From a virus (taxonomy: Duplodnaviria; Heunggongvirae; Uroviricota; Caudoviricetes), in IMG/VR virus record IMGVR_UViG_2563366958_000018: a stretch of DNA of 52,177 nt, one strand, 5' to 3'. A program made the position numbers and the translations under genes. Below are positions 1 to 49,322 of this stretch, in pieces. The notes below the pieces were generated by a model that saw only the letters and a program-made list of their open reading frames with translations, made no database searches and was not told the origin of the DNA. Position 1 is the stretch's first letter. Every line of letters starts with the position of its first letter.

Positions 1-3000
1 ATGCCTGTCGACTTTCTAACCTCTGACCAAAAACAGAATTACGGTTGTTATGCTGCAGAACCTAATGACGTGCAACTGGCGCGCTATTTTCATCTTGATG
101 AACGGGATCTGGCCTTCATTAACCAACGACGGGGCAAACATAATAGGCTGGGCATTGCGCTTCAGCTCACCACAGCCCGTTTTCTGGGAACATTTCTGAC
201 GGATTTAACTCAGGTTCTGCCTGGTGTTCAACATTTTGTCGCGGTACAGCTTAATATCCACCGTCCAGAAGTTCTCTCCCGCTATGCTGAACGGGACACT
301 ACCCTTAGAGAACATACTGCATTAATTAAGGAATATTACGGCTATCATGAATTTGGTGATTTTCCATGGTCTTTCCGCCTGAAGCGTCTGCTATATACCC
401 GGGCGTGGCTCAGTAATGAGCGACCGGGTCTGATGTTTGATTTTGCCACTGCATGGTTGCTTCAAAATAAGGTATTACTGCCCGGAGCAACCACACTAGT
501 ACGTCTCATCAGTGAAATTCGTGAAAGGGCAAATCAGCGGCTGTGGAAAAAGCTGGCCGCACTGCCGAACAAATGGCAGGCAGCTCAAGTGATGGAGCTT
601 CTGGTCATTCCGGAAGGTCAGCGTGTATCAGCACTGGAACAGTTGAAAAAAGGCCCTGTTACAGTCAGTGGACCTGCGTTTAATGAGGCGCTGGAACGAT
701 ATATCCGATTACGAAGTCTTGAGTTTTCCCGACTGAACTTTTCCGGTCTGCCTGCCATTCAACTGCGTAATCTGGCTCGTTATGCTGGCATGGCGTCGGT
801 AAAATATATCGCTCGAATGCCACAGCAGAGAAAGCTTGCTGCACTTACTGCATTCGTTAAAGCACAGGAAATAACGGCATTAGACGATGCCGTTGATGTG
901 CTTGATATGCTAATTCTGGACATTATCCGCGAAGCAAAGAAAACCGGGCAAAAAAAAAGACTCAGGACACTGAAAGATCTTGATCAGGCCGCATTGTTAC
1001 TGGCGCGGGCATGTGCATTGTTGCTGGATGATAATACAGATGTCCCAGATCTCAGGCAGGTTATCTTCAAGTGCGTACCCAAAAACAGACTGGCAGAATC
1101 TGTAAGCAAGGTTAATGAACTTGCTCGTCCACAGAACAATAATTTCCATGACGAAATGGTTGAGCAGTACGGTCGGGTTAAACGTTTTCTTCCGGCGGTG
1201 TTGCGGGACCTGCATTTCCGTGCGGCACCGGCAGGTGAACATGTACTGGCTGCGATTCATTATCTGGCAGAACTGAATGGTTCGAAAAAGCGCATCCTTG
1301 ATGATGCGCCTGAACATATTATCACCGGTCCCTGGAAACGCCTCGTATACGATGCGGAGGGACGGATACAGCGTGCAGGTTATTCACTATGTTTGCTGGA
1401 ACGCCTTCAGGATGCACTGCGCCGCCGGGACATCTGGCTTGAAAACAGTGATCGCTGGGGAGATCCTCGCGAGAAGTTGTTGCAAGGTGAAGAGTGGCAG
1501 ACTCAGCGTATTCCTGTCTGTCGGGCACTGGGACATCCTGTCGATGGACGTAAAGGTGTGCAACAACTGGCTATTCAGCTGGATGAGACCTGGAAAGCCG
1601 TGGCATCACGATTTGAAAAGAATGCGGAAGTTCATATCTGTAATGAAGGTAAATATCCATCCCTGACTATCAGTTGTCTGGAGAAACAGGAAGAGCCACC
1701 ATCATTGCTTCGTCTAAATAATCGGATCAAACAGCTACTCCCACCGGTAGATTTAACGGAACTGTTACTTGAGATAGATGCCCAGACAGGATTTACACAT
1801 GAGTTTGCGCATGTCAGTGAATCTGGTGCTCGAGCGCAAGATTTGCACATCAGTTTATGTGCGGTATTGATGGCTGAAGCCTGTAATATCGGACTGGAGC
1901 CGCTGATAAAGCACAATATACCAGCACTGACCCGCCATCGGCTCAGTTGGGTGAAACAGAATTACCTTCGTGCAGAAACGCTGGTCAGCGCCAATGCCCG
2001 CCTGGTTGATTTTCAGTCCACACTGGAGCTTGCTGGTCGTTGGGGAGGTGGAGAAGTGGCATCAGCTGACGGCATGCGCTTTGTCACACCAGTGAAGACC
2101 ATCAACTCAGGATCTAACAGAAAATATTTTGGTTCTGGACGAGGCATCACCTGGTATAACTTCGTATCTGATCAGTACTCTGGGTTCCATGGCATTGTGG
2201 TACCCGGTACATTACGGGATTCGATTTTTGTACTGGAAGGACTTCTTGAGCAGCAGACAGGGCTGAATCCAGTTGAAATCATGACAGACACTGCGGGTAG
2301 CAGCGATATTATTTTCGGTCTGTTCTGGCTACTGGGGTATCAGTTTTCCCCCCGGCTTGCCGATGCAGGTGAGGCGGTGTTCTGGCGGGTGAATAAATCG
2401 GCAAACTACGGAGTACTGGATAAGTTGGCCCGAGGATATGCAGATCTGTCAAAAGCGGAGAGTCAGTGGGATGAGATGATGCGAACCGCTGGTTCGCTGA
2501 AGTTGGGTACAATTCATGCGTCAGAACTCATTCGCTCTTTACTGAAAAGCTCGCGCCCATCAGGACTGGCACAGGCAATTATGGAAGTAGGGCGTGTAAA
2601 CAAAACGCTATATCTCCTCAATTATATTGATGATGAAGATTATCGTCGGCGGATCCTGACGCAGCTTAATCGAGGAGAAGGCCGCCACGCTGTGGCTCGT
2701 GCGATTTGTTACGGACAACGCGGAGAGATCAGAAAGCGTTATCGTGAAGGGCAGGAAGATCAACTGGGGGCGCTGGGCCTGGTTACTAATGCAGTGGTTC
2801 TGTGGAACACGCTCTATATGGAGGAAGCGTTGAGCTGGATGCGCCGTAATGGCGAAGAAATTATAGATGAAGATATCGCTCGGCTATCTCCCCTGATGCA
2901 CGGGCATATCAATATGTTGGGCCATTATACATTCACGTTGCCAGAGGATATTTTAAAAGGGGAACTGAGAGCTCTAAATTTAAATATAAACAACGAATTA

Positions 3001-3009
3001 TCTCCTTAA
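1..3009 (+). CDS. tnpA: Tn3-family transposase TnpA (Tn1000/gamma-delta-like), 1002 aa
   Basis: Full-length ORF starting MPVDFLT; conserved Tn3-family TnpA blocks (RPGLMFD, GGGEVASADGMRFV, LSPLMHGHINMLGHY); stop codon lies inside the terminal IR as in Tn3-family elements. Confidence 0.9.
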   Translation: MPVDFLTSDQKQNYGCYAAEPNDVQLARYFHLDERDLAFINQRRGKHNRLGIALQLTTARFLGTFLTDLTQVLPGVQHFVAVQLNIHRPEVLSRYAERDTTLREHTALIKEYYGYHEFGDFPWSFRLKRLLYTRAWLSNERPGLMFDFATAWLLQNKVLLPGATTLVRLISEIRERANQRLWKKLAALPNKWQAAQVMELLVIPEGQRVSALEQLKKGPVTVSGPAFNEALERYIRLRSLEFSRLNFSGLPAIQLRNLARYAGMASVKYIARMPQQRKLAALTAFVKAQEITALDDAVDVLDMLILDIIREAKKTGQKKRLRTLKDLDQAALLLARACALLLDDNTDVPDLRQVIFKCVPKNRLAESVSKVNELARPQNNNFHDEMVEQYGRVKRFLPAVLRDLHFRAAPAGEHVLAAIHYLAELNGSKKRILDDAPEHIITGPWKRLVYDAEGRIQRAGYSLCLLERLQDALRRRDIWLENSDRWGDPREKLLQGEEWQTQRIPVCRALGHPVDGRKGVQQLAIQLDETWKAVASRFEKNAEVHICNEGKYPSLTISCLEKQEEPPSLLRLNNRIKQLLPPVDLTELLLEIDAQTGFTHEFAHVSESGARAQDLHISLCAVLMAEACNIGLEPLIKHNIPALTRHRLSWVKQNYLRAETLVSANARLVDFQSTLELAGRWGGGEVASADGMRFVTPVKTINSGSNRKYFGSGRGITWYNFVSDQYSGFHGIVVPGTLRDSIFVLEGLLEQQTGLNPVEIMTDTAGSSDIIFGLFWLLGYQFSPRLADAGEAVFWRVNKSANYGVLDKLARGYADLSKAESQWDEMMRTAGSLKLGTIHASELIRSLLKSSRPSGLAQAIMEVGRVNKTLYLLNYIDDEDYRRRILTQLNRGEGRHAVARAICYGQRGEIRKRYREGQEDQLGALGLVTNAVVLWNTLYMEEALSWMRRNGEEIIDEDIARLSPLMHGHINMLGHYTFTLPEDILKGELRALNLNINNELSP

Positions 3010-3042
3010 CGTACGTTTTCGTTCCATTGGCCCTCAAACCCC
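3005..3042. repeat. 38-bp Tn3-family terminal inverted repeat (Tn1000-like)
   Basis: CTTAACGTACGTTTTCGTTCCATTGGCCCTCAAACCCC is the reverse complement of a GGGGTTTGAGGGCCAATGGAACGAAAACGTACGTTAAG-type IR; overlaps the tnpA stop. Confidence 0.85.
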
Positions 3043-4477: not shown

Positions 4478-4508
4478 TTATATAAATCTATAAAACTATA
4501 ATTATATA
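4478..4508. repeat. AT-rich palindromic repeat block (TATAAATCTATA / TATAATTATATA) between the two partition genes
   Basis: Same motif family as at 5187-5287 and five other intergenic sites. Confidence 0.5.
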
Positions 4509-9010: not shown

Positions 9011-9130
9011 AAAATCTATAAATATATAATTATAGATTTATATAAAAAGTGCTTTACAGGTGGGAAAAAATTTCCTATGGTTATACCCGAAACCGAGCGA
9101 TACCCGCCCTGGTTAAACCGGAGAAATCTG
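9011..9130 (+). promoter_or_regulatory. Conserved promoter/operator/leader cassette, copy 1
   Basis: AT-rich palindrome + TTTACA-N17-TATGGT + 50-nt leader ending GGAG-N8-ATG; near-identical copies at 15968-16081 and 48828-48941. Confidence 0.5.
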
Positions 9131-10198
9131 ATGAATAAACAAGTAATTATTTCTGACTGGATCAACAACCCTAACAGCCTGTTAAGCACTGATACTGGCT
9201 ACCTATTACGCCATGTTAATGGTCGTATGGTCAAAAGCGATGAGCACGAAACCTTTTTCTTTGTTGAAGACGATGGGCGTATCTATGAGGATGGTTACTC
9301 TTATGAAGCCCAAACTGGTTGTATCCCTGCGGAGCTGGTGGATGTAACAGAAGATCTGCGCAAAGCATGGCTTGAACAGCAGCAGCGCGGAGATGATTAC
9401 GTAAACACCTATCAGGAACGCCAGAACGCGCGTCTTGCCCGATATATTGCTCGTGCAGAAAAAGCCAGAAAAGAAGGTGCGGTAGCGCATAAGCGAGCGC
9501 ATGACCTGTTGGATGTGATCCCGTTAGGCCAGCCGATTTTAGTTGACCATTATAGCGCGAAAGGCCATCGCCGCCGTTTGTCTAAAGCTGATGCGTTATT
9601 CAGAAAAGCGTTTGTTGAATGCGAAAGTAAAGCATCACACTACGAGAGCAAAGCCGCAGGTGTTGGTCGTAATGGAATTTCGTCTGATGATCCTGATGCG
9701 CTATTTAAGTTGCTTCGTAAGCTGCAAGGCTGCATGAAGTCACACGTCAAAATGAAGGCCGCAAATAAGGCCATTCGCAAATACAAAAAAGACCAAATAC
9801 AGCAGCTTTCTGCATTAATCGATCTCAGGTTTACAGAAAGCGAAGCCAAAGAGTTACTGGCCGGAGATTTCTGTGGGCGCATCGGATTCCCTTCATACGC
9901 ACTGAGCAACAATAACGCCGAAATCAAACGACTACAGAGCCGTATTAAGGAGCTTGAATCGGTCAAGTCTGTAACAGGAGCACAGCGCGAAGAATACGAC
10001 GGCTTTTCTATGGAGATAGATCCAGAGGATAACCGCATCCTGTTTTATTTCCCTGGCAAACCAGAGGCAAACATTCGTTCGCTGCTTAAATCACGCGCCT
10101 TTAAGTGGAGTCCAACCCGTAATGCATGGGTTCGCAAGATTACTCCAAACGCCCTGGCTGATGCCCGATATCTGAAAGAATCGCTATTGAAAGCCTGA
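9131..10198 (+). CDS. DUF3560-like protein (355 aa)
   Basis: GQPILVDHYSAKGHRRR and C-terminal FKWSP...NAWVR segments resemble DUF3560; start taken at the ATG after the conserved leader rather than the in-frame ATG at 9077. Confidence 0.55.
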   Translation: MNKQVIISDWINNPNSLLSTDTGYLLRHVNGRMVKSDEHETFFFVEDDGRIYEDGYSYEAQTGCIPAELVDVTEDLRKAWLEQQQRGDDYVNTYQERQNARLARYIARAEKARKEGAVAHKRAHDLLDVIPLGQPILVDHYSAKGHRRRLSKADALFRKAFVECESKASHYESKAAGVGRNGISSDDPDALFKLLRKLQGCMKSHVKMKAANKAIRKYKKDQIQQLSALIDLRFTESEAKELLAGDFCGRIGFPSYALSNNNAEIKRLQSRIKELESVKSVTGAQREEYDGFSMEIDPEDNRILFYFPGKPEANIRSLLKSRAFKWSPTRNAWVRKITPNALADARYLKESLLKA

Positions 10199-15383: not shown

Positions 15384-15971
15384 ATGGAGGCAATTGCATT
15401 GTTTAATCTGATTTATGCAGATCCCCCCTGGGAATACAAAGATAAGTGTAAGGATGGGAATCGTGGAGCTGGTTTTAAGTATCCAACGATGAAAGCTGAG
15501 GATATTGCTCGTATTCCTGTCTGGCAGCTTGCTAATCCTGAATCGTGTTTGTTGGCCATGTGGTGGGTTCCGACTCAGCCAGAAGAAGCGTTGCTGGTGG
15601 TGAAAGCATGGGGATTCAGGCTTATGACCATGAAGGGCTTCACATGGAACAAATGTGGTAGCCGACAACCAGATAAGCTGGTGATGGGGATGGGGCATAT
15701 GACTCGTGCAAACAGTGAAGATTGCTTGTTTGCGGTAAAAGGCAAATTGCCGACCCGCCTTGATGCGGGGATCATTCAGTCGTTTACATCGCCTCGTCTG
15801 GAGCATTCTCGGAAGCCTGATGTGGTTCGTGACAAGCTGGTAAGGCTGTTAGGTGATGTTCCTCGTATTGAGCTGTTTGCTCGCGGTGATTTACCTGATG
15901 GTTGGCATGGCTGGGGCAACCAGTGCAATGGAGGTATCCAGTTGCATGATGCTCTCTGGCAAGTGGCATAG
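15384..15971 (+). CDS. MT-A70-family N6-adenine DNA methyltransferase (orphan)
   Basis: Catalytic DPPW motif (IYADPPWEY), 195 aa; no adjacent restriction endonuclease. Confidence 0.8.
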   Translation: MEAIALFNLIYADPPWEYKDKCKDGNRGAGFKYPTMKAEDIARIPVWQLANPESCLLAMWWVPTQPEEALLVVKAWGFRLMTMKGFTWNKCGSRQPDKLVMGMGHMTRANSEDCLFAVKGKLPTRLDAGIIQSFTSPRLEHSRKPDVVRDKLVRLLGDVPRIELFARGDLPDGWHGWGNQCNGGIQLHDALWQVA

Positions 15972-16081
15972 AATTATATAATTATAGATTTATATAAAAA
16001 GTGCTTTACAGGTGGGAAAAAATTTCCTATGGTTATACCCGAAACCGAGCGATACCCGCCCTGGTTAAACCGGAGAAATCT
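15968..16081 (+). promoter_or_regulatory. Conserved promoter/operator/leader cassette, copy 2
   Basis: Identical to copy 1 over ~100 bp. Confidence 0.5.
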
Positions 16082-16352
16082 GATGAAAGTACAAGACCGT
16101 GAAGTAGTAAAAAACCTCCTGCAATACCTGACCTCAAAAAACCTGACGGGCAGCGTTGAGTTCCGTGAAGCGTTAAAACATTTCAACGTCACTACGGTTT
16201 ATCGTTGGGAAAACAAACATTCTGAAAGACCGTATGTGGTGGATGTTTTTGCGCCTGATATTGAGTGCGGTTTTGAGCGTCATTCGTTCAAGGAGAAACA
16301 TTCTGCTGATTTTTTTTGTGAGGTTGTATGTGCGGCAGGAGATGATGAGTGA
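16082..16352 (+). CDS. Hypothetical protein (90 aa)
   Basis: First ORF after cassette copy 2. Confidence 0.45.
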
Positions 16353-43451: not shown

Positions 43452-43489
43452 AGGGGTCTGACGCTCAGTGGAACGAAAACTCACGTTAA
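43452..43489. repeat. Tn3 38-bp terminal inverted repeat (bla-proximal end)
   Basis: GGGGTCTGACGCTCAGTGGAACGAAAACTCACGTTAAG. Confidence 0.9.
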
Positions 43490-43599
43490 GGGATTTTGGT
43501 CATGAGATTATCAAAAAGGATCTTCACCTAGATCCTTTTAAATTAAAAATGAAGTTTTAAATCAATCTAAAGTATATATGAGTAAACTTGGTCTGACAG

Positions 43600-44472
<873 letters not shown>

Positions 44473-44642
44473 TCAATATTATTGAAGCATTTATCAGGGT
44501 TATTGTCTCATGAGCGGATACATATTTGAATGTATTTAGAAAAATAAACAAATAGGGGTTCCGCGCACATTTCCCCGAAAAGTGCCACCTGACGTCTAAG
44601 AAACCATTATTATCATGACATTAACCTATAAAAATAGGCGTA

Positions 44643-45222
<580 letters not shown>

Positions 45223-45688: not shown

Positions 45689-46669
45689 ATGGAAACAAAA
45701 AGCCCGCAGATAAATCTGCGGGCTTCTTGCGACATCCACGGAAAACCAACAACAACAATCCATGGGCGCCTCGACAACTCCCATTATACGTTGGTTTTCC
45801 GTGGACGCAAGAGCGAACATATGGATAGACCAATGCCGTCTCTACGTTCAGCTTACGTTTGTAATTTGTCGCCGGAGTTCCAGCCTCCAAAGCACCATAC
45901 GCACAAGCTGCCGCTGGTGTTATCTGATGCTTTACAGCGCATTAATGGGCGTGATCTTACGTGTGAGGTTGCGTTCTACGTTAATCAACCGTCAGAGCGG
46001 AAGCGCCGGATAAACGAGCATCGTCGTCGGGCGATTAATGCTGTGATCGCTGCGATTTTGCACCATGTAAACATCATTTCTAAGCGGGTTCTGGCTAGTG
46101 CTGAGGCGTTGGCTGATTTTTGCGGCCTGTCTACCGTATCCGAAGCTGGGAACAAGTCTATAACGCGCTGTACAAGGGCGTTGTCGCAACTGAAAGCGTT
46201 AGGTTTTATTGATTATGAACGTCGCTGGGATCGGGTGAATAAACAGTATTGGCCAGCGAAAATAGAGATTCGTGATCAACTGCTGGAAACCGTTGGTATT
46301 ACTGAACAAGCATGGAGACGTGCGGTTAGCCAGAAACTTAATTACTTCAATGCGAAGAATAGCGAACGGCTTAAAAAAGCGATAACGGAGGCTGATTATA
46401 AGCGTATTGTTATTCAGGAGCAGATGGAGAATGTATGGCGTCAGAGGAAGACGGCCAGAGAGATAAAGGCAAAACAGAAAGCAGCGGAGAGAGCTGCGCG
46501 TCTTGTTCGGGAAAAGGGAGAGGCCGAACTTCGTCATCAAATCACCAGAGAGGTTAGTCAGGAATTTGCTGATGGCATGTATCCTGGTGCTGACCTTGCA
46601 TATTTACGATCCCTCGTTGAGCAGCGTTATAACAGGTTAAGAAAGACCTGGAAATCACTCCAACATTAA
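45689..46669 (+). CDS. repA: Plasmid replication initiator RepA (IncFII RepA1 / I-complex RepZ family)
   Basis: Conserved RRRAINAVIAAILHH and CGLSTVSEAGNKSITRCTRALSQLKALGFIDY blocks align with IncFII RepA1 as recalled; likely true start at ATG 45821 (282 aa), with 45689-45820 being leader. Confidence 0.85.
   Translation: METKSPQINLRASCDIHGKPTTTIHGRLDNSHYTLVFRGRKSEHMDRPMPSLRSAYVCNLSPEFQPPKHHTHKLPLVLSDALQRINGRDLTCEVAFYVNQPSERKRRINEHRRRAINAVIAAILHHVNIISKRVLASAEALADFCGLSTVSEAGNKSITRCTRALSQLKALGFIDYERRWDRVNKQYWPAKIEIRDQLLETVGITEQAWRRAVSQKLNYFNAKNSERLKKAITEADYKRIVIQEQMENVWRQRKTAREIKAKQKAAERAARLVREKGEAELRHQITREVSQEFADGMYPGADLAYLRSLVEQRYNRLRKTWKSLQH
45699..45810 (+). promoter_or_regulatory. repA leader with two strong hairpins (candidate antisense-RNA target / translational control region)
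   Basis: AGCCCGCAG-ATAAAT-CTGCGGGCT (45701-45723) and CCACGGAAAACCAAC...GTTGGTTTTCCGTGG (15-bp stem, 45736-45804). Confidence 0.35.
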
Positions 46670-47300
46670 CCCACCTGAATGATGAATCCGGTTTTACCGG
46701 AGGATTATCTACGTCGCAATAAAATATCTGTTCAAAAAACAATCTAAATTAATTTTCTCTAAACCTGAACACAGCAAAAATATCGCCTTTACAGGCATCG
46801 GCTAATAAAGTTATCCACAGTTCTGATATGTATATGCAAATGGTTTTTTATAATAGATGCACTAAACAAATAAATGCAAAATCACTTTCTTTTATTAAGA
46901 CTTTCTTTATTTAACTTACGCAGGCTTTGCCTGTGAATATGTTCGCCCTTGCAGCGAGCTAAAGCTCGCGCCGGTTCGAGTCGCTACGCTCAAATATACC
47001 TCCTCCGGCACTTGCCGGAGGCATGGAGCAGCCTGATCATCCTTTTCGAAACGGCACGTTTCGAACTATACAAAATCAATTTATATAAGGCCGAAATAAG
47101 GCCTACGGCCGGGCTTTGCAGGAGGAAGGGGCGAGCCTTATCAATAAACGTCGATAAATACGCACACAGTAGCCATCAGAACGCGATAAAATGTAAGAAA
47201 CATCATTTCCTATTAGACATAGAAAACTTGTCTTATACGCAATGTAGTAAATTTCTATTGCCACATAGGAAAAGATTTCCTACCATCGTAGATATAATAA
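46670..47300. other. Probable replication origin region downstream of repA (AT-rich, DnaA box)
   Basis: TTATCCACA at 46811-46819; AT-rich tracts and GC-rich hairpins (for example CGAAACGGCACGTTTCG). Confidence 0.4.
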
Positions 47301-47312
47301 ATGGAGATGGTT

Positions 47313-47600
47313 ATGGATAAAGATACTGTTTTAAAAATGTTGAATCCGGCTTGTTTAAAAAAAGCGGATGAATGGGAATCTCCTACATGTGGAGAAGTTC
47401 GGGCAGTCATTGGCCTGACCGGAATGAGCGGCTCGCAGTTAGCCAAAAAACTAGGCTTAAAAGATAGTCGCAATGTTCGCAACTGGCAGATGTTAAAGGA
47501 GTCCACATCCAGATCCAGCATTCCGTATGCAGCCTGGGCGCTGCTGTGTTACTTCGCTGGGTTAGGGTTAATCTTCATTGATAACAAAACAGATGTTTGA
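47313..47600 (+). CDS. Hypothetical HTH-like protein (95 aa)
   Basis: GGAG RBS; segment GEVRAVIGLTGMSGSQLAKKLGL resembles an HTH. Confidence 0.4.
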   Translation: MDKDTVLKMLNPACLKKADEWESPTCGEVRAVIGLTGMSGSQLAKKLGLKDSRNVRNWQMLKESTSRSSIPYAAWALLCYFAGLGLIFIDNKTDV

Positions 47601-47623
47601 AACATGCAAATATGAGGTTTGTT

Positions 47624-47887
47624 ATGGAACTTGTACGCAAAACACGCAAAGAGTTCTTGGACCTGTATCGCATGGGAGCTTTCACTTGTGTTGTGGCTAC
47701 CCAGGACGAAGTGACAAAAAGCTGGCGGCTTTTTGCTCTCAATAAAAAAGGGATTGCCGTTTTCATTGAAAAAGCCCGTGGTGGTATCCGCGAATGGGCG
47801 GGATTGAATTATGTGGCTGATTTTTGCGCAGCTATGGGGATTCGTCGCTGGGAAGTCCATATGCCAGGAGTAAAGTCACAAAAATAG
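47624..47887 (+). CDS. Hypothetical protein (87 aa)
   Basis: GAGG RBS 6 nt upstream. Confidence 0.4.
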   Translation: MELVRKTRKEFLDLYRMGAFTCVVATQDEVTKSWRLFALNKKGIAVFIEKARGGIREWAGLNYVADFCAAMGIRRWEVHMPGVKSQK

Positions 47888-48131
47888 GGCTTTCGCGTCG
47901 AAAATGAGGCGAAACTGAAAACGAGATTTCATTAACAAATAAGCAACATAAAAAACGGTGGAAAACGCCCAGGAAAACATGATCTTTTGAGCGGATTTTT
48001 TAGATCCGACAATGAACGGTGATCCGGTGGTGCCGATAACGTCCATTATGTTAAATAGCCCCGTTTTTCTTGAAATTATAACTCACAGGTTATATAGTTA
48101 GTGATATAAACTACAGGTTATAGGATTGAGC

Positions 48132-48479
48132 ATGTGGACGGTACTTTTTAGCCAGCGATTTGACGACTGGCTAAATGAGCAAGAAGACGCTCTTCAGGAA
48201 AAGGTTTTGGCTGATTTGAAAAAGCTACAGGTTTACGGACCTGAGTTACCCAGGCCATATGCCGATACCGTAAAAGGTTCTCGGTACAAAAATATGAAAG
48301 AGCTTCGCGTTCAGTTTTCTGGCCGTCCGATAAGAGCCTTTTATGCGTTCGATCCGATTCGCCGGGCCATCGTTCTTTGTGCAGGAGACAAAAGTAACGA
48401 TAAGCGGTTTTATGAAAAACTGGTGCGTATAGCTGAGGATGAGTTTGCAGCACATCTGAACACACTGGAGAGCAAGTAA
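48132..48479 (+). CDS. RelE/ParE-superfamily toxin (HigB / Gp49-like)
   Basis: 115 aa, toxin-first gene order, TAATG coupling to a downstream HTH antitoxin. Confidence 0.6.
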   Translation: MWTVLFSQRFDDWLNEQEDALQEKVLADLKKLQVYGPELPRPYADTVKGSRYKNMKELRVQFSGRPIRAFYAFDPIRRAIVLCAGDKSNDKRFYEKLVRIAEDEFAAHLNTLESK

Positions 48480-48778
48480 TGAGAACATTAGATGAGGCGA
48501 TTGCCAGCCGTTCACCTGAAAGCCAGGCGCGAATTAAAGAAATGGCAGATGAGATGATTCTTGAGGTCGGCTTGCAGATGATGCGTGAAGAACTCCAGTT
48601 ATCACAAAAACAGGTTGCTGAGGCGATGGGTATAAGCCAGCCAGCAGTAACAAAGCTGGAGCAGCGCGGAAATGATTTAAAGCTGGCGACATTAAAGCGT
48701 TACGTTGAAGCTATGGGAGGCAAATTAAGCCTGGATGTTGAGCTTCCCACAGGAAAACGAATAGCGTTTAACATCTGA
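48479..48778 (+). CDS. HigA-like XRE-family HTH antitoxin
   Basis: HTH (LQLSQKQVAEAMGISQPAVTKLE) in C-terminal half; coupled to upstream toxin. Confidence 0.6.
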   Translation: MRTLDEAIASRSPESQARIKEMADEMILEVGLQMMREELQLSQKQVAEAMGISQPAVTKLEQRGNDLKLATLKRYVEAMGGKLSLDVELPTGKRIAFNI

Positions 48779-48793
48779 TCAGAACGAATGATA

Positions 48794-48820
48794 AGCCCCT
48801 GTTGCAAAGGGGCTTTTTTG
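48794..48820 (+). terminator. Rho-independent terminator
   Basis: AGCCCCT-GTTGCAA-AGGGGCT then TTTTTT. Confidence 0.45.
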
Positions 48821-48827
48821 CGCTCAT

Positions 48828-48941
48828 AGAATTATATAATTATAGATTTATATAAAAAGTGCTTTACAGGTGGGAAAAAATTTCCTAAGGTTATACCCGA
48901 AACCGAGCGATACCCGCCCTGGTTAAACCGGAGATAACCCG
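48828..48941 (+). promoter_or_regulatory. Conserved promoter/operator/leader cassette, copy 3
   Basis: Identical to copies 1 and 2 except a T-to-A change (TAAGG vs TATGG) and a divergent last 10 nt. Confidence 0.5.
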
Positions 48942-49322
48942 ATGAGCATGATTAAAATCCGCAAAAACGCTTTCCTTAAAATTCAAACTATCCTGGCTGG
49001 TTCTGTTGGCGTGATTTGCCGTTCTTCTTCAAGCCGCATCGATGACGGCTACGATGATGAGTATCGTTTGTCCTCGTGCGATGAGGCTTTAACCTGGCTG
49101 AAGGAGAATCAGGAACGTGCCCAGGTATATCTGGAAACAGAGAACGGCAATCAGATGCTCCGTATTAGCGGTCGTTATGGATTTGAAACCACATTCATGG
49201 CCTATTTTAATCAGGCTTACTTTGACAAGGAGTTGGCCTGGTACACTGATCGCATGAGCAAAAGCGAGCCAGCCCCGATTACACCGCCGAACGATAAACC
49301 ATTTTTATTCCTCGTTAAGTAA
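48942..49322 (+). CDS. Hypothetical protein (126 aa)
   Basis: First ORF after cassette copy 3. Confidence 0.45.
   Translation: MSMIKIRKNAFLKIQTILAGSVGVICRSSSSRIDDGYDDEYRLSSCDEALTWLKENQERAQVYLETENGNQMLRISGRYGFETTFMAYFNQAYFDKELAWYTDRMSKSEPAPITPPNDKPFLFLVK

Follow-up and report, generated by a model that had tools for sequence, protein, structure and literature searches.

Layout of the operon and its promoter

The window (the whole stretch of DNA that was analysed, 52,177 bp long and circular-looking) carries an IncFII-type repA gene and, beyond it, a pair of short genes on the plus strand, which resemble a toxin and an antitoxin of the HigBA type. The pair forms an operon with one promoter and one terminator, and the toxin gene lies upstream. 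The features are the following:

45689-46669, IncFII-type repA gene, identified by profile matches
48043-48768, plus strand, cassette shared by horizontal transfer, made up of the two genes with their promoter and operators; over this stretch alone the identity to Y. pestis pPCP1 is 95%
48070-48075, plus strand, -35 box TTGAAA of the higBA promoter (sigma-70-like, 10 of 12 matches, 17-nt spacer)
48077-48094, plus strand, predicted operator O1, 18-bp imperfect palindrome TATAACTCACAGGTTATA, which holds the first ACAGGTTATA
48093-48098, plus strand, -10 box TATAGT, from the promoter scan
48105-48122, plus strand, predicted operator O2, 18-bp imperfect palindrome TATAAACTACAGGTTATA, which holds the second ACAGGTTATA
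48122-48125, plus strand, Shine-Dalgarno sequence AGGA of the toxin gene, 6 nt 5' of the ATG, read from the sequence
48132-48479, plus strand, higB-like toxin gene (ATG 48132, TAA 48477-48479, 115 aa), Gp49 branch of the RelE/ParE superfamily
48467-48472, plus strand, Shine-Dalgarno sequence GGAGAG of the antitoxin gene, within the toxin 3' end and 6 nt 5' of the ATG, read from the sequence
48479-48778, plus strand, higA-like antitoxin gene (ATG 48479, TGA 48776-48778, 99 aa), XRE-type HTH
48793-48819, plus strand, intrinsic terminator (8-bp stem with 5 G-C pairs, 7-nt loop, six T)

The toxin stop codon and the antitoxin start codon share one base in the sequence TAATG (48477-48481). Both this coupling and the toxin-first order had been claimed in the earlier note, and both were borne out: the 115-aa toxin ORF precedes the 99-aa antitoxin ORF here, and the same order was found in all 80 homologous loci described below. 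A mechanical alternative start (TTG) of the toxin ORF lies at 48126; the toxin start in RefSeq records is ATG. The Shine-Dalgarno sequence of the antitoxin appears stronger than that of the toxin, which would be compatible with surplus antitoxin synthesis in a toxin-first operon. RNA folding of the terminator gave -15.2 kcal/mol (z = -2.3).

Scanning of positions 47600-49100 revealed TTGAAA-17-TATAGT as the sole sigma-70-like site, and a search of the same region for an internal antitoxin promoter, as in A. baumannii higBA2, yielded no consensus-like site, though a weak promoter may be present there. O1 occupies the spacer of this promoter and reaches 2 nt into the -10 box. O2 lies 3' of the -10 box, over the leader and the predicted site of transcription initiation (near 48104-48106), and extends up to the Shine-Dalgarno sequence, which it abuts. 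The two operators start 28 nt apart, and the left half-site of O2 is the weaker one (TATAAAC). Two direct repeats had previously been proposed in this promoter, and ACAGGTTATA was indeed present as exact copies at 48085-48094 and 48113-48122, and at no other place on either strand of the 52-kb window. According to the repeat finder, these decamers are the right (3') halves of the O1 and O2 palindromes. The coordinates and the promoter location of the repeats thus stand, but the description as a simple direct repeat does not: since the decamers sit inside two 18-bp palindromes, the repeat unit is a putative dyad operator. Further sites with the O1/O2 half-sites were not found in the window. O1 and O2 are most likely the paired sites by which the antitoxin turns the cassette off.

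The two proteins and their characterised relatives

In a Pfam scan at E <= 0.01 the toxin matched Gp49 (PF05973) alone, with 81.3 bits against a cut-off of 23.9 and over profile positions 1-89 of 90; PF05015, PF09907 and PF06296 gave no match. The toxin reached 18.9 bits with NCBIfam TIGR02683 (upstrm_HI1419 RelE/ParE toxin), below the cut-off of 62.85, and matched phrog_3445 'toxin' at 2e-33. An AlphaFold (AF2) model built from 22 homologues (pLDDT 91) predicted the order strand, helix, helix, four strands and a long C-terminal helix (residues 91-114). The best Foldseek match of this model was S. pneumoniae HigB (TM about 0.7); RelE proteins and V. cholerae HigB2 ranked next. The predicted fold is that of RelE/HigB, with the long C-terminal helix that is the hallmark of Gp49-like toxins (PMC9098466). 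In the Gp49-like HigB-TAC, which cleaves mRNA at the ribosomal A site, this helix touches P-site tRNA and the ribosomal protein uS13 (PMC9098466). Searches of PDB sequences for relatives of the toxin, with the single sequence and with the 22-member profile, found none. The link from the toxin to solved structures therefore goes through the predicted fold, and the conserved E57, R59, R68, K87 and K91 were assigned as putative catalytic residues by motif spacing only. Ribosome-dependent A-site mRNA cleavage through these residues, whose spacing is as in HigB-TAC and IncC HigB, may be proposed by analogy and is the weakest step of the interpretation.

By its Pfam family the cassette is assigned to the Gp49 branch and not to the families of classical HigB of Rts1/P. 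vulgaris (PF05015/PF09907) or of V. cholerae HigB2 (PF06296) (PMC11980606). The likeness to Rts1/P. vulgaris HigBA and V. cholerae HigBA2 consists in the toxin-first order, the RelE-fold toxin (predicted here, and presumably ribosome-dependent as in those systems) and the HTH antitoxin.

The HTH of the antitoxin (Pfam HTH_3, 3.9e-10, 40.1 bits against a cut-off of 23) comprises residues 32-83 of 99, and HTH_37 matched as well. The HTH is flanked by about 30 N-terminal residues on one side and by a conserved strand segment at the C terminus on the other. An XRE-HTH had been expected in the C-terminal half of the protein; the domain type was correct, but its location is central to C-terminal. 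The antitoxin matched phrog_2339 at 6e-31, and its PDB sequence matches were M. tuberculosis HigA3 (4.8e-5), M. tuberculosis HigA2 (2.5e-4) and S. pneumoniae HigA (4.6e-3).

Among characterised systems, IncC HigB shares 54% identity with the toxin and the Acinetobacter pAB120-type HigB 57%; for the antitoxin, identity to the corresponding HigA proteins is 46% and 62%, respectively. The IncC HigBA system (formerly tad-ata-like) is toxic in E. coli and rescued by HigA, and it lifts retention of pACYC184 to 99-100%; ribosome-dependent mRNA cleavage was reported for its toxin, which is inactivated by the substitution G64V, and a putative non-canonical SOS box was proposed by the authors in the higBA promoter region (Qi et al. 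2021, PMC8265657). G64 of the toxin described here aligns without gaps to G64 of IncC HigB and is invariant in the 22 homologues, and all 29 family-invariant residues, G64 among them, are kept. The IncC (IncA/C2) system also shares the Gp49 toxin, the XRE antitoxin, the toxin-first order, a low-copy plasmid as carrier and a pair of 18-bp dyads, which overlie its predicted -35 and -10 boxes. Its half-sites are, however, ATAG..CTAT in dyads that overlap by 4 nt, whereas those described here are ATAA..TTAT, 28 nt apart; its genes are 4 nt apart on a conjugative plasmid, whereas the genes here overlap and belong to a phage-plasmid. The IncC plasmid pSH111_166 (locus L084, 1145-1185) showed the overlapping 18-bp TATAG-N8-CTATA dyads TATAGGTTTGAATCTATA and TATAGGATTGCACCTATA in its higBA promoter region, an architecture that matches the predicted HigA operators of the whole family.

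HigBA2 of A. baumannii pAB120 belongs to the same clade as the cassette. Its toxin HigB2 is an RNase whose toxicity is neutralised by the antitoxin, the system maintains unstable plasmids, and the higBA2 promoter is repressed by HigA2 and more so by the HigBA2 complex (Armalyte et al. 2018, PMC5906591). It differs from the cassette in having a single upstream ATAG..CTAT dyad, small plasmids as carriers and an additional internal higA2 promoter, whereas the cassette showed no second promoter-like site. The dyads are described in neither the IncC paper (PMC8265657) nor the A. baumannii paper (PMC5906591). By analogy with these relatives, at 54-57% identity, the toxin of the present pair would be expected to be toxic and the antitoxin to rescue.

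M. tuberculosis HigBA3 (Rv3182-Rv3183) and HigBA2 (Rv2022c-Rv2021c) likewise have Gp49-type toxins in toxin-first order, and their antitoxins are the best solved relatives; both are far more distant (antitoxin about E 1e-4) and chromosomal, and their toxins HigB3 and HigB2 were reported to be non-toxic in M. smegmatis (PMC9098466, PMC11205783). The higBA3 promoter contains TATAACCTAGAGGTTATA at the -10 box, and HigA3 has been crystallised on operator DNA (PMC7340258). This palindrome, TATAACC-N4-GGTTATA, shares the half-sites of O1 and O2 as well as the location at the -10 box. HigA3 bound a probe spanning the left part of TATAACCTAGAGGTTATA with a Kd of 11 nM; in EMSA, the left-part probe alone was shifted and the full-palindrome probe was not (PMC7340258). 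The HigA2 operator is different (ATATCAC-N6-GTGATAT), and HigA2 regulates several further genes (PMC11205783). The M. tuberculosis systems could thus be taken as precedents for a cassette with a weak or inactive toxin and an antitoxin acting chiefly as a transcription factor, i.e. for a regulatory remnant instead of an addiction module. We regard such a remnant as very improbable, as the toxin retains 29 of 29 family-invariant residues, the gene pair is constant among the homologous loci, the far closer relatives at 54-57% identity are toxic in E. coli, and the O1/O2 half-sites recur at no other place in the window.

Putative operator dyads in homologous loci

The pair is already present in RefSeq as a RelE/ParE-family toxin and an HTH-domain protein; the family is well studied and the locus adds no new principle. 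The small incremental point is the operator architecture of the family. A search of the literature found no paper on the family-wide operator architecture or on this HigBA orthologue.

Homologous loci were collected from one genome per species, which gave 80 loci with toxin relatives at 54-98% identity, mostly from Enterobacterales, Pasteurellaceae and Acinetobacter. A homologue of the antitoxin was located directly 3' of the toxin homologue in every one of them. Apart from dyads, the 110 nt 5' of the toxin gene could not be aligned among the loci; nearly all contained 16-18-bp (T)ATAA-N8-TTAT(A) dyads, typically TATAAGCTnnAGCTTATA. Exact matches to ATAA-N8-TTAT or ATAG-N8-CTAT were counted in these 110 nt of 75 non-redundant loci and in 441 kb of flanking sequence. 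At least one dyad was present upstream of the toxin gene in 75/75 loci and at least two in 44/75, with a start-to-start spacing of 18-29 nt. The density was 14.5 dyads per kb upstream versus 0.045 per kb in the flanks (about 320-fold), which indicates that the repeats are non-random by conservation as well as by counting. Most homologous loci had TTGAAA or TTGACA at the equivalent position relative to the first dyad, and the -10 box (TATAAT or TATATT) was often formed by the right half of that dyad. The earlier assignment to the HigBA type agrees with these conserved dyads as well as with the Gp49 match, the predicted RelE/HigB fold, the HigA-related antitoxin and the pairing in 80/80 loci. 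Judged from these sequence data, an intact, autoregulated type II toxin-antitoxin operon of the Gp49/HigBA type, with O1 and O2 as putative antitoxin operators, is a likely description of the locus.

The half-site variant ATAG..CTAT was observed in Acinetobacter, in IncC plasmids and in a few other clades. Residue 56 of the antitoxin was Ala in 64/66 loci of the ATAA type and Ser or Thr in 12/12 loci of the ATAG type; kinship inflates these counts, but the ATAG class nevertheless spans several separate lineages. This residue falls in the HTH region, at the expected location of the recognition helix.

A promoter-plus-leader cassette of about 115 nt was observed in three near-identical copies elsewhere in the window (9019-9134, 15971-16086 and 48829-48944), the last of which begins 10 nt past the terminator of the toxin-antitoxin operon. 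Each copy ends at the ATG of a different gene and reads ATAGAATTATATAATTATAGATTTATATAAAAAGTGCTTTACAGGTGGGAAAAAATTTCCTAWGGTTATACCCGAAACCGAGCGATACCCGCCCTGGTTAAACCGGAGA..ATG; within it, TTTACA-17-TAWGGT comes after the AT-rich dyad TATAATTATAGATTTATA. Motifs of a related kind (TATAAATCTATAA) occur at 4481 and 5270, and TATAA-N8-TTATA gave 8 matches in the window versus 0.12 expected. The three copies are candidates for repressor-controlled phage promoters that share a 5' leader. It would be a long shot to propose that the operator grammar of the family (two 18-bp dyads, with position 4 of the half-site, A or G, tracking Ala or Ser/Thr at residue 56) is a specificity code and that the antitoxin in addition touches the TATAA-N8-TTATA dyads of the three promoter-leader copies. 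If true, antitoxin at these dyads would make the expression of phage genes responsive to the state of the module.

Carrier, spread and proposed function of the cassette

The window was collinear at 99.6-100% with the 47.7-kb E. coli plasmid pMB9698_3 save for two extra segments. The genes of pMB9698_3 include terminase, portal, tail sheath-type tail genes, baseplate, tail fibres and holins as well as an IncFII-type RepA and ParA, and the toxin-antitoxin region was 99.3-99.4% identical in the Yersinia phages vB_YpM_39, 41 and 44. The combination of phage and RepA/ParA genes in pMB9698_3, together with the Yersinia phage matches, makes the reading as a phage-plasmid sound. The toxin is labelled 'HigB2' by Prokka in the Yersinia phage records, presumably after the Swiss-Prot name of M. 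tuberculosis Rv2022c and not after V. cholerae HigB2. As a possible carrier family, the pSLy3 phage-plasmid group was discarded because pSLy3 belongs to the SSU5 supergroup, and the paper on vB_YpM_HQ103 contained nothing relevant to the toxin-antitoxin module.

The two segments absent from pMB9698_3 lie at 43453-45015 and 1-3042. The former has a Tn3-type inverted repeat (43453-43480) and a flanking 5-bp duplication of the backbone; it contains blaTEM on the minus strand (43600-44460), which scored 665 bits with the NCBIfam blaTEM model (cut-off 625), and a resolvase truncated at its N terminus (44643-44975). The latter encodes a 1002-aa Tn3-family transposase (1-3009). On the circular map the two segments bracket a 7.2-kb segment with repA, the origin and the toxin-antitoxin genes.

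An exact DnaA box, TTATCCACA, was found at 46811-46819, 142 nt 3' of the repA stop codon. It is the sole one in the window and lies in the non-coding stretch 46670-47300, the place expected for an oriR of the IncFII type. The placement of the module beside the replicon, as asserted in the earlier note, is roughly right: the toxin-antitoxin promoter lies about 1.25 kb past the DnaA box, and two small ORFs (47301-47600 and 47597-47887, overlapping by 4 nt) separate it from the origin region. Both ORFs fall in PHROGs of unknown function (phrog_8351 and phrog_4595), and the ORF at 47301-47600 gave a weak HTH signal (TIGR02612, phrog_7950); they could be a second small regulatory or toxin-antitoxin-like pair.

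The order from repA to the toxin-antitoxin genes was syntenic in 53 plasmid records, and at least one related Salmonella plasmid matched the repA part of the query alone. Outside this phage-plasmid family, proximity to repA is not conserved. At the DNA level the cassette was found in 143 plasmids; relatives of the toxin were found in 1982 plasmids. The stretch 48043-48768 also occurs on unrelated 24-30-kb E. coli plasmids (76-97% identity) and, at 95% nucleotide identity, on the 9.6-kb Y. pestis plasmid pPCP1 (52 Yersinia records). Its occurrence without linkage to repA, as in pPCP1, indicates that the cassette is an autonomous mobile unit. For this reason its place next to repA counts as weak evidence of function and not as an independent line of it.

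The same distribution bears on the question of whether the ACAGGTTATA repeats, which are direct repeats about 1.4 kb downstream of repA, could be part of the replicon, as iterons or as a site for RepA or a host factor. The repeats accompany the toxin-antitoxin genes onto backbones without this repA (pPCP1 and chromosomal loci), and they belong to dyads that sit over the toxin-antitoxin promoter and co-vary with the HTH region of the antitoxin. IncFII-type replicons are not known to use iterons. A replicon function of the repeats was rejected on these grounds, its probability being close to nil.

The pPCP1 copy has a degenerate left half in O2 (GGGTAAGC). One Y. pestis protein cluster (P0010) had the scrambled sequence ESDSSGYRS in place of DPIRRAIVL at residues 74-82, which looks like the product of a local double frameshift. 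The literature search yielded no paper that characterises the pPCP1 module. Scaffold15 of Amphibacillus jilinensis Y1 (L003, 9.6 kb) carried the toxin-antitoxin cassette and upstream sequence identical to those of Y. pestis (L004), and is probably a pPCP1 contamination of this Bacillota assembly.

As a full explanation, we propose with high confidence a bicistronic, toxin-first type II toxin-antitoxin operon, which would act in post-segregational killing. A dimer of the antitoxin would bind O1 and O2, and would do so better when complexed with the toxin; with the -10 box and the start site covered in this way, the promoter would be repressed. The N-terminal approximately 30 residues of the antitoxin may neutralise the toxin. 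Free toxin would enter the ribosomal A site and cleave mRNA, leading to growth arrest, and with an antitoxin that decays faster than the toxin, loss of the phage-plasmid would leave the cell poisoned.

P1 Phd-Doc is a type II addiction module on a prophage that is kept as a low-copy plasmid. It may be regarded as a functional analogue of the cassette, but its proteins show no relationship to those of the cassette, Doc being a Fic-fold kinase; the antitoxin gene comes first and the operator logic is another one. Post-segregational killing by the cassette would, as Phd-Doc does for P1, add to RepA and ParA in stabilising the low-copy prophage-plasmid. Its occurrence in the phage-plasmid is suggested by the characterised relatives and by the prevalence of the family on plasmids, and on this basis post-segregational stabilisation is probably the main role of the cassette.

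A different main role, anti-phage defence or superinfection exclusion with plasmid stabilisation as a side effect, would have the infecting phage stop host transcription, so that the toxin, freed as the antitoxin decays, aborts the infection. The carrier, being itself a phage, would gain from the exclusion of competitors, toxins of the RelE/ParE superfamily recur in defence loci (PMC11980606), and the toxin matched the C-terminal part of the PADLOC model NsnC weakly and at the level of a domain (6e-7). PADLOC gave no match at the level of a system, however, but just the partial NsnC and generic HTH models. Both closest characterised relatives were tested for plasmid stabilisation and showed it (PMC8265657, PMC5906591), and the family is overwhelmingly plasmid-borne (1982 records). 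The two roles can coexist, but defence as the main one appears unlikely to us, and post-segregational stabilisation remains the preferred interpretation.

With blaTEM in one of the extra segments, the phage-plasmid carries a beta-lactamase gene. The cassette would in part explain why a widespread Escherichia/Yersinia phage-plasmid of about 48-52 kb is stably carried; the practical value is modest. For the toxin-antitoxin family, which is very common on IncC and Acinetobacter resistance plasmids, comparison of the dyads yields predicted binding sites and a candidate specificity residue.
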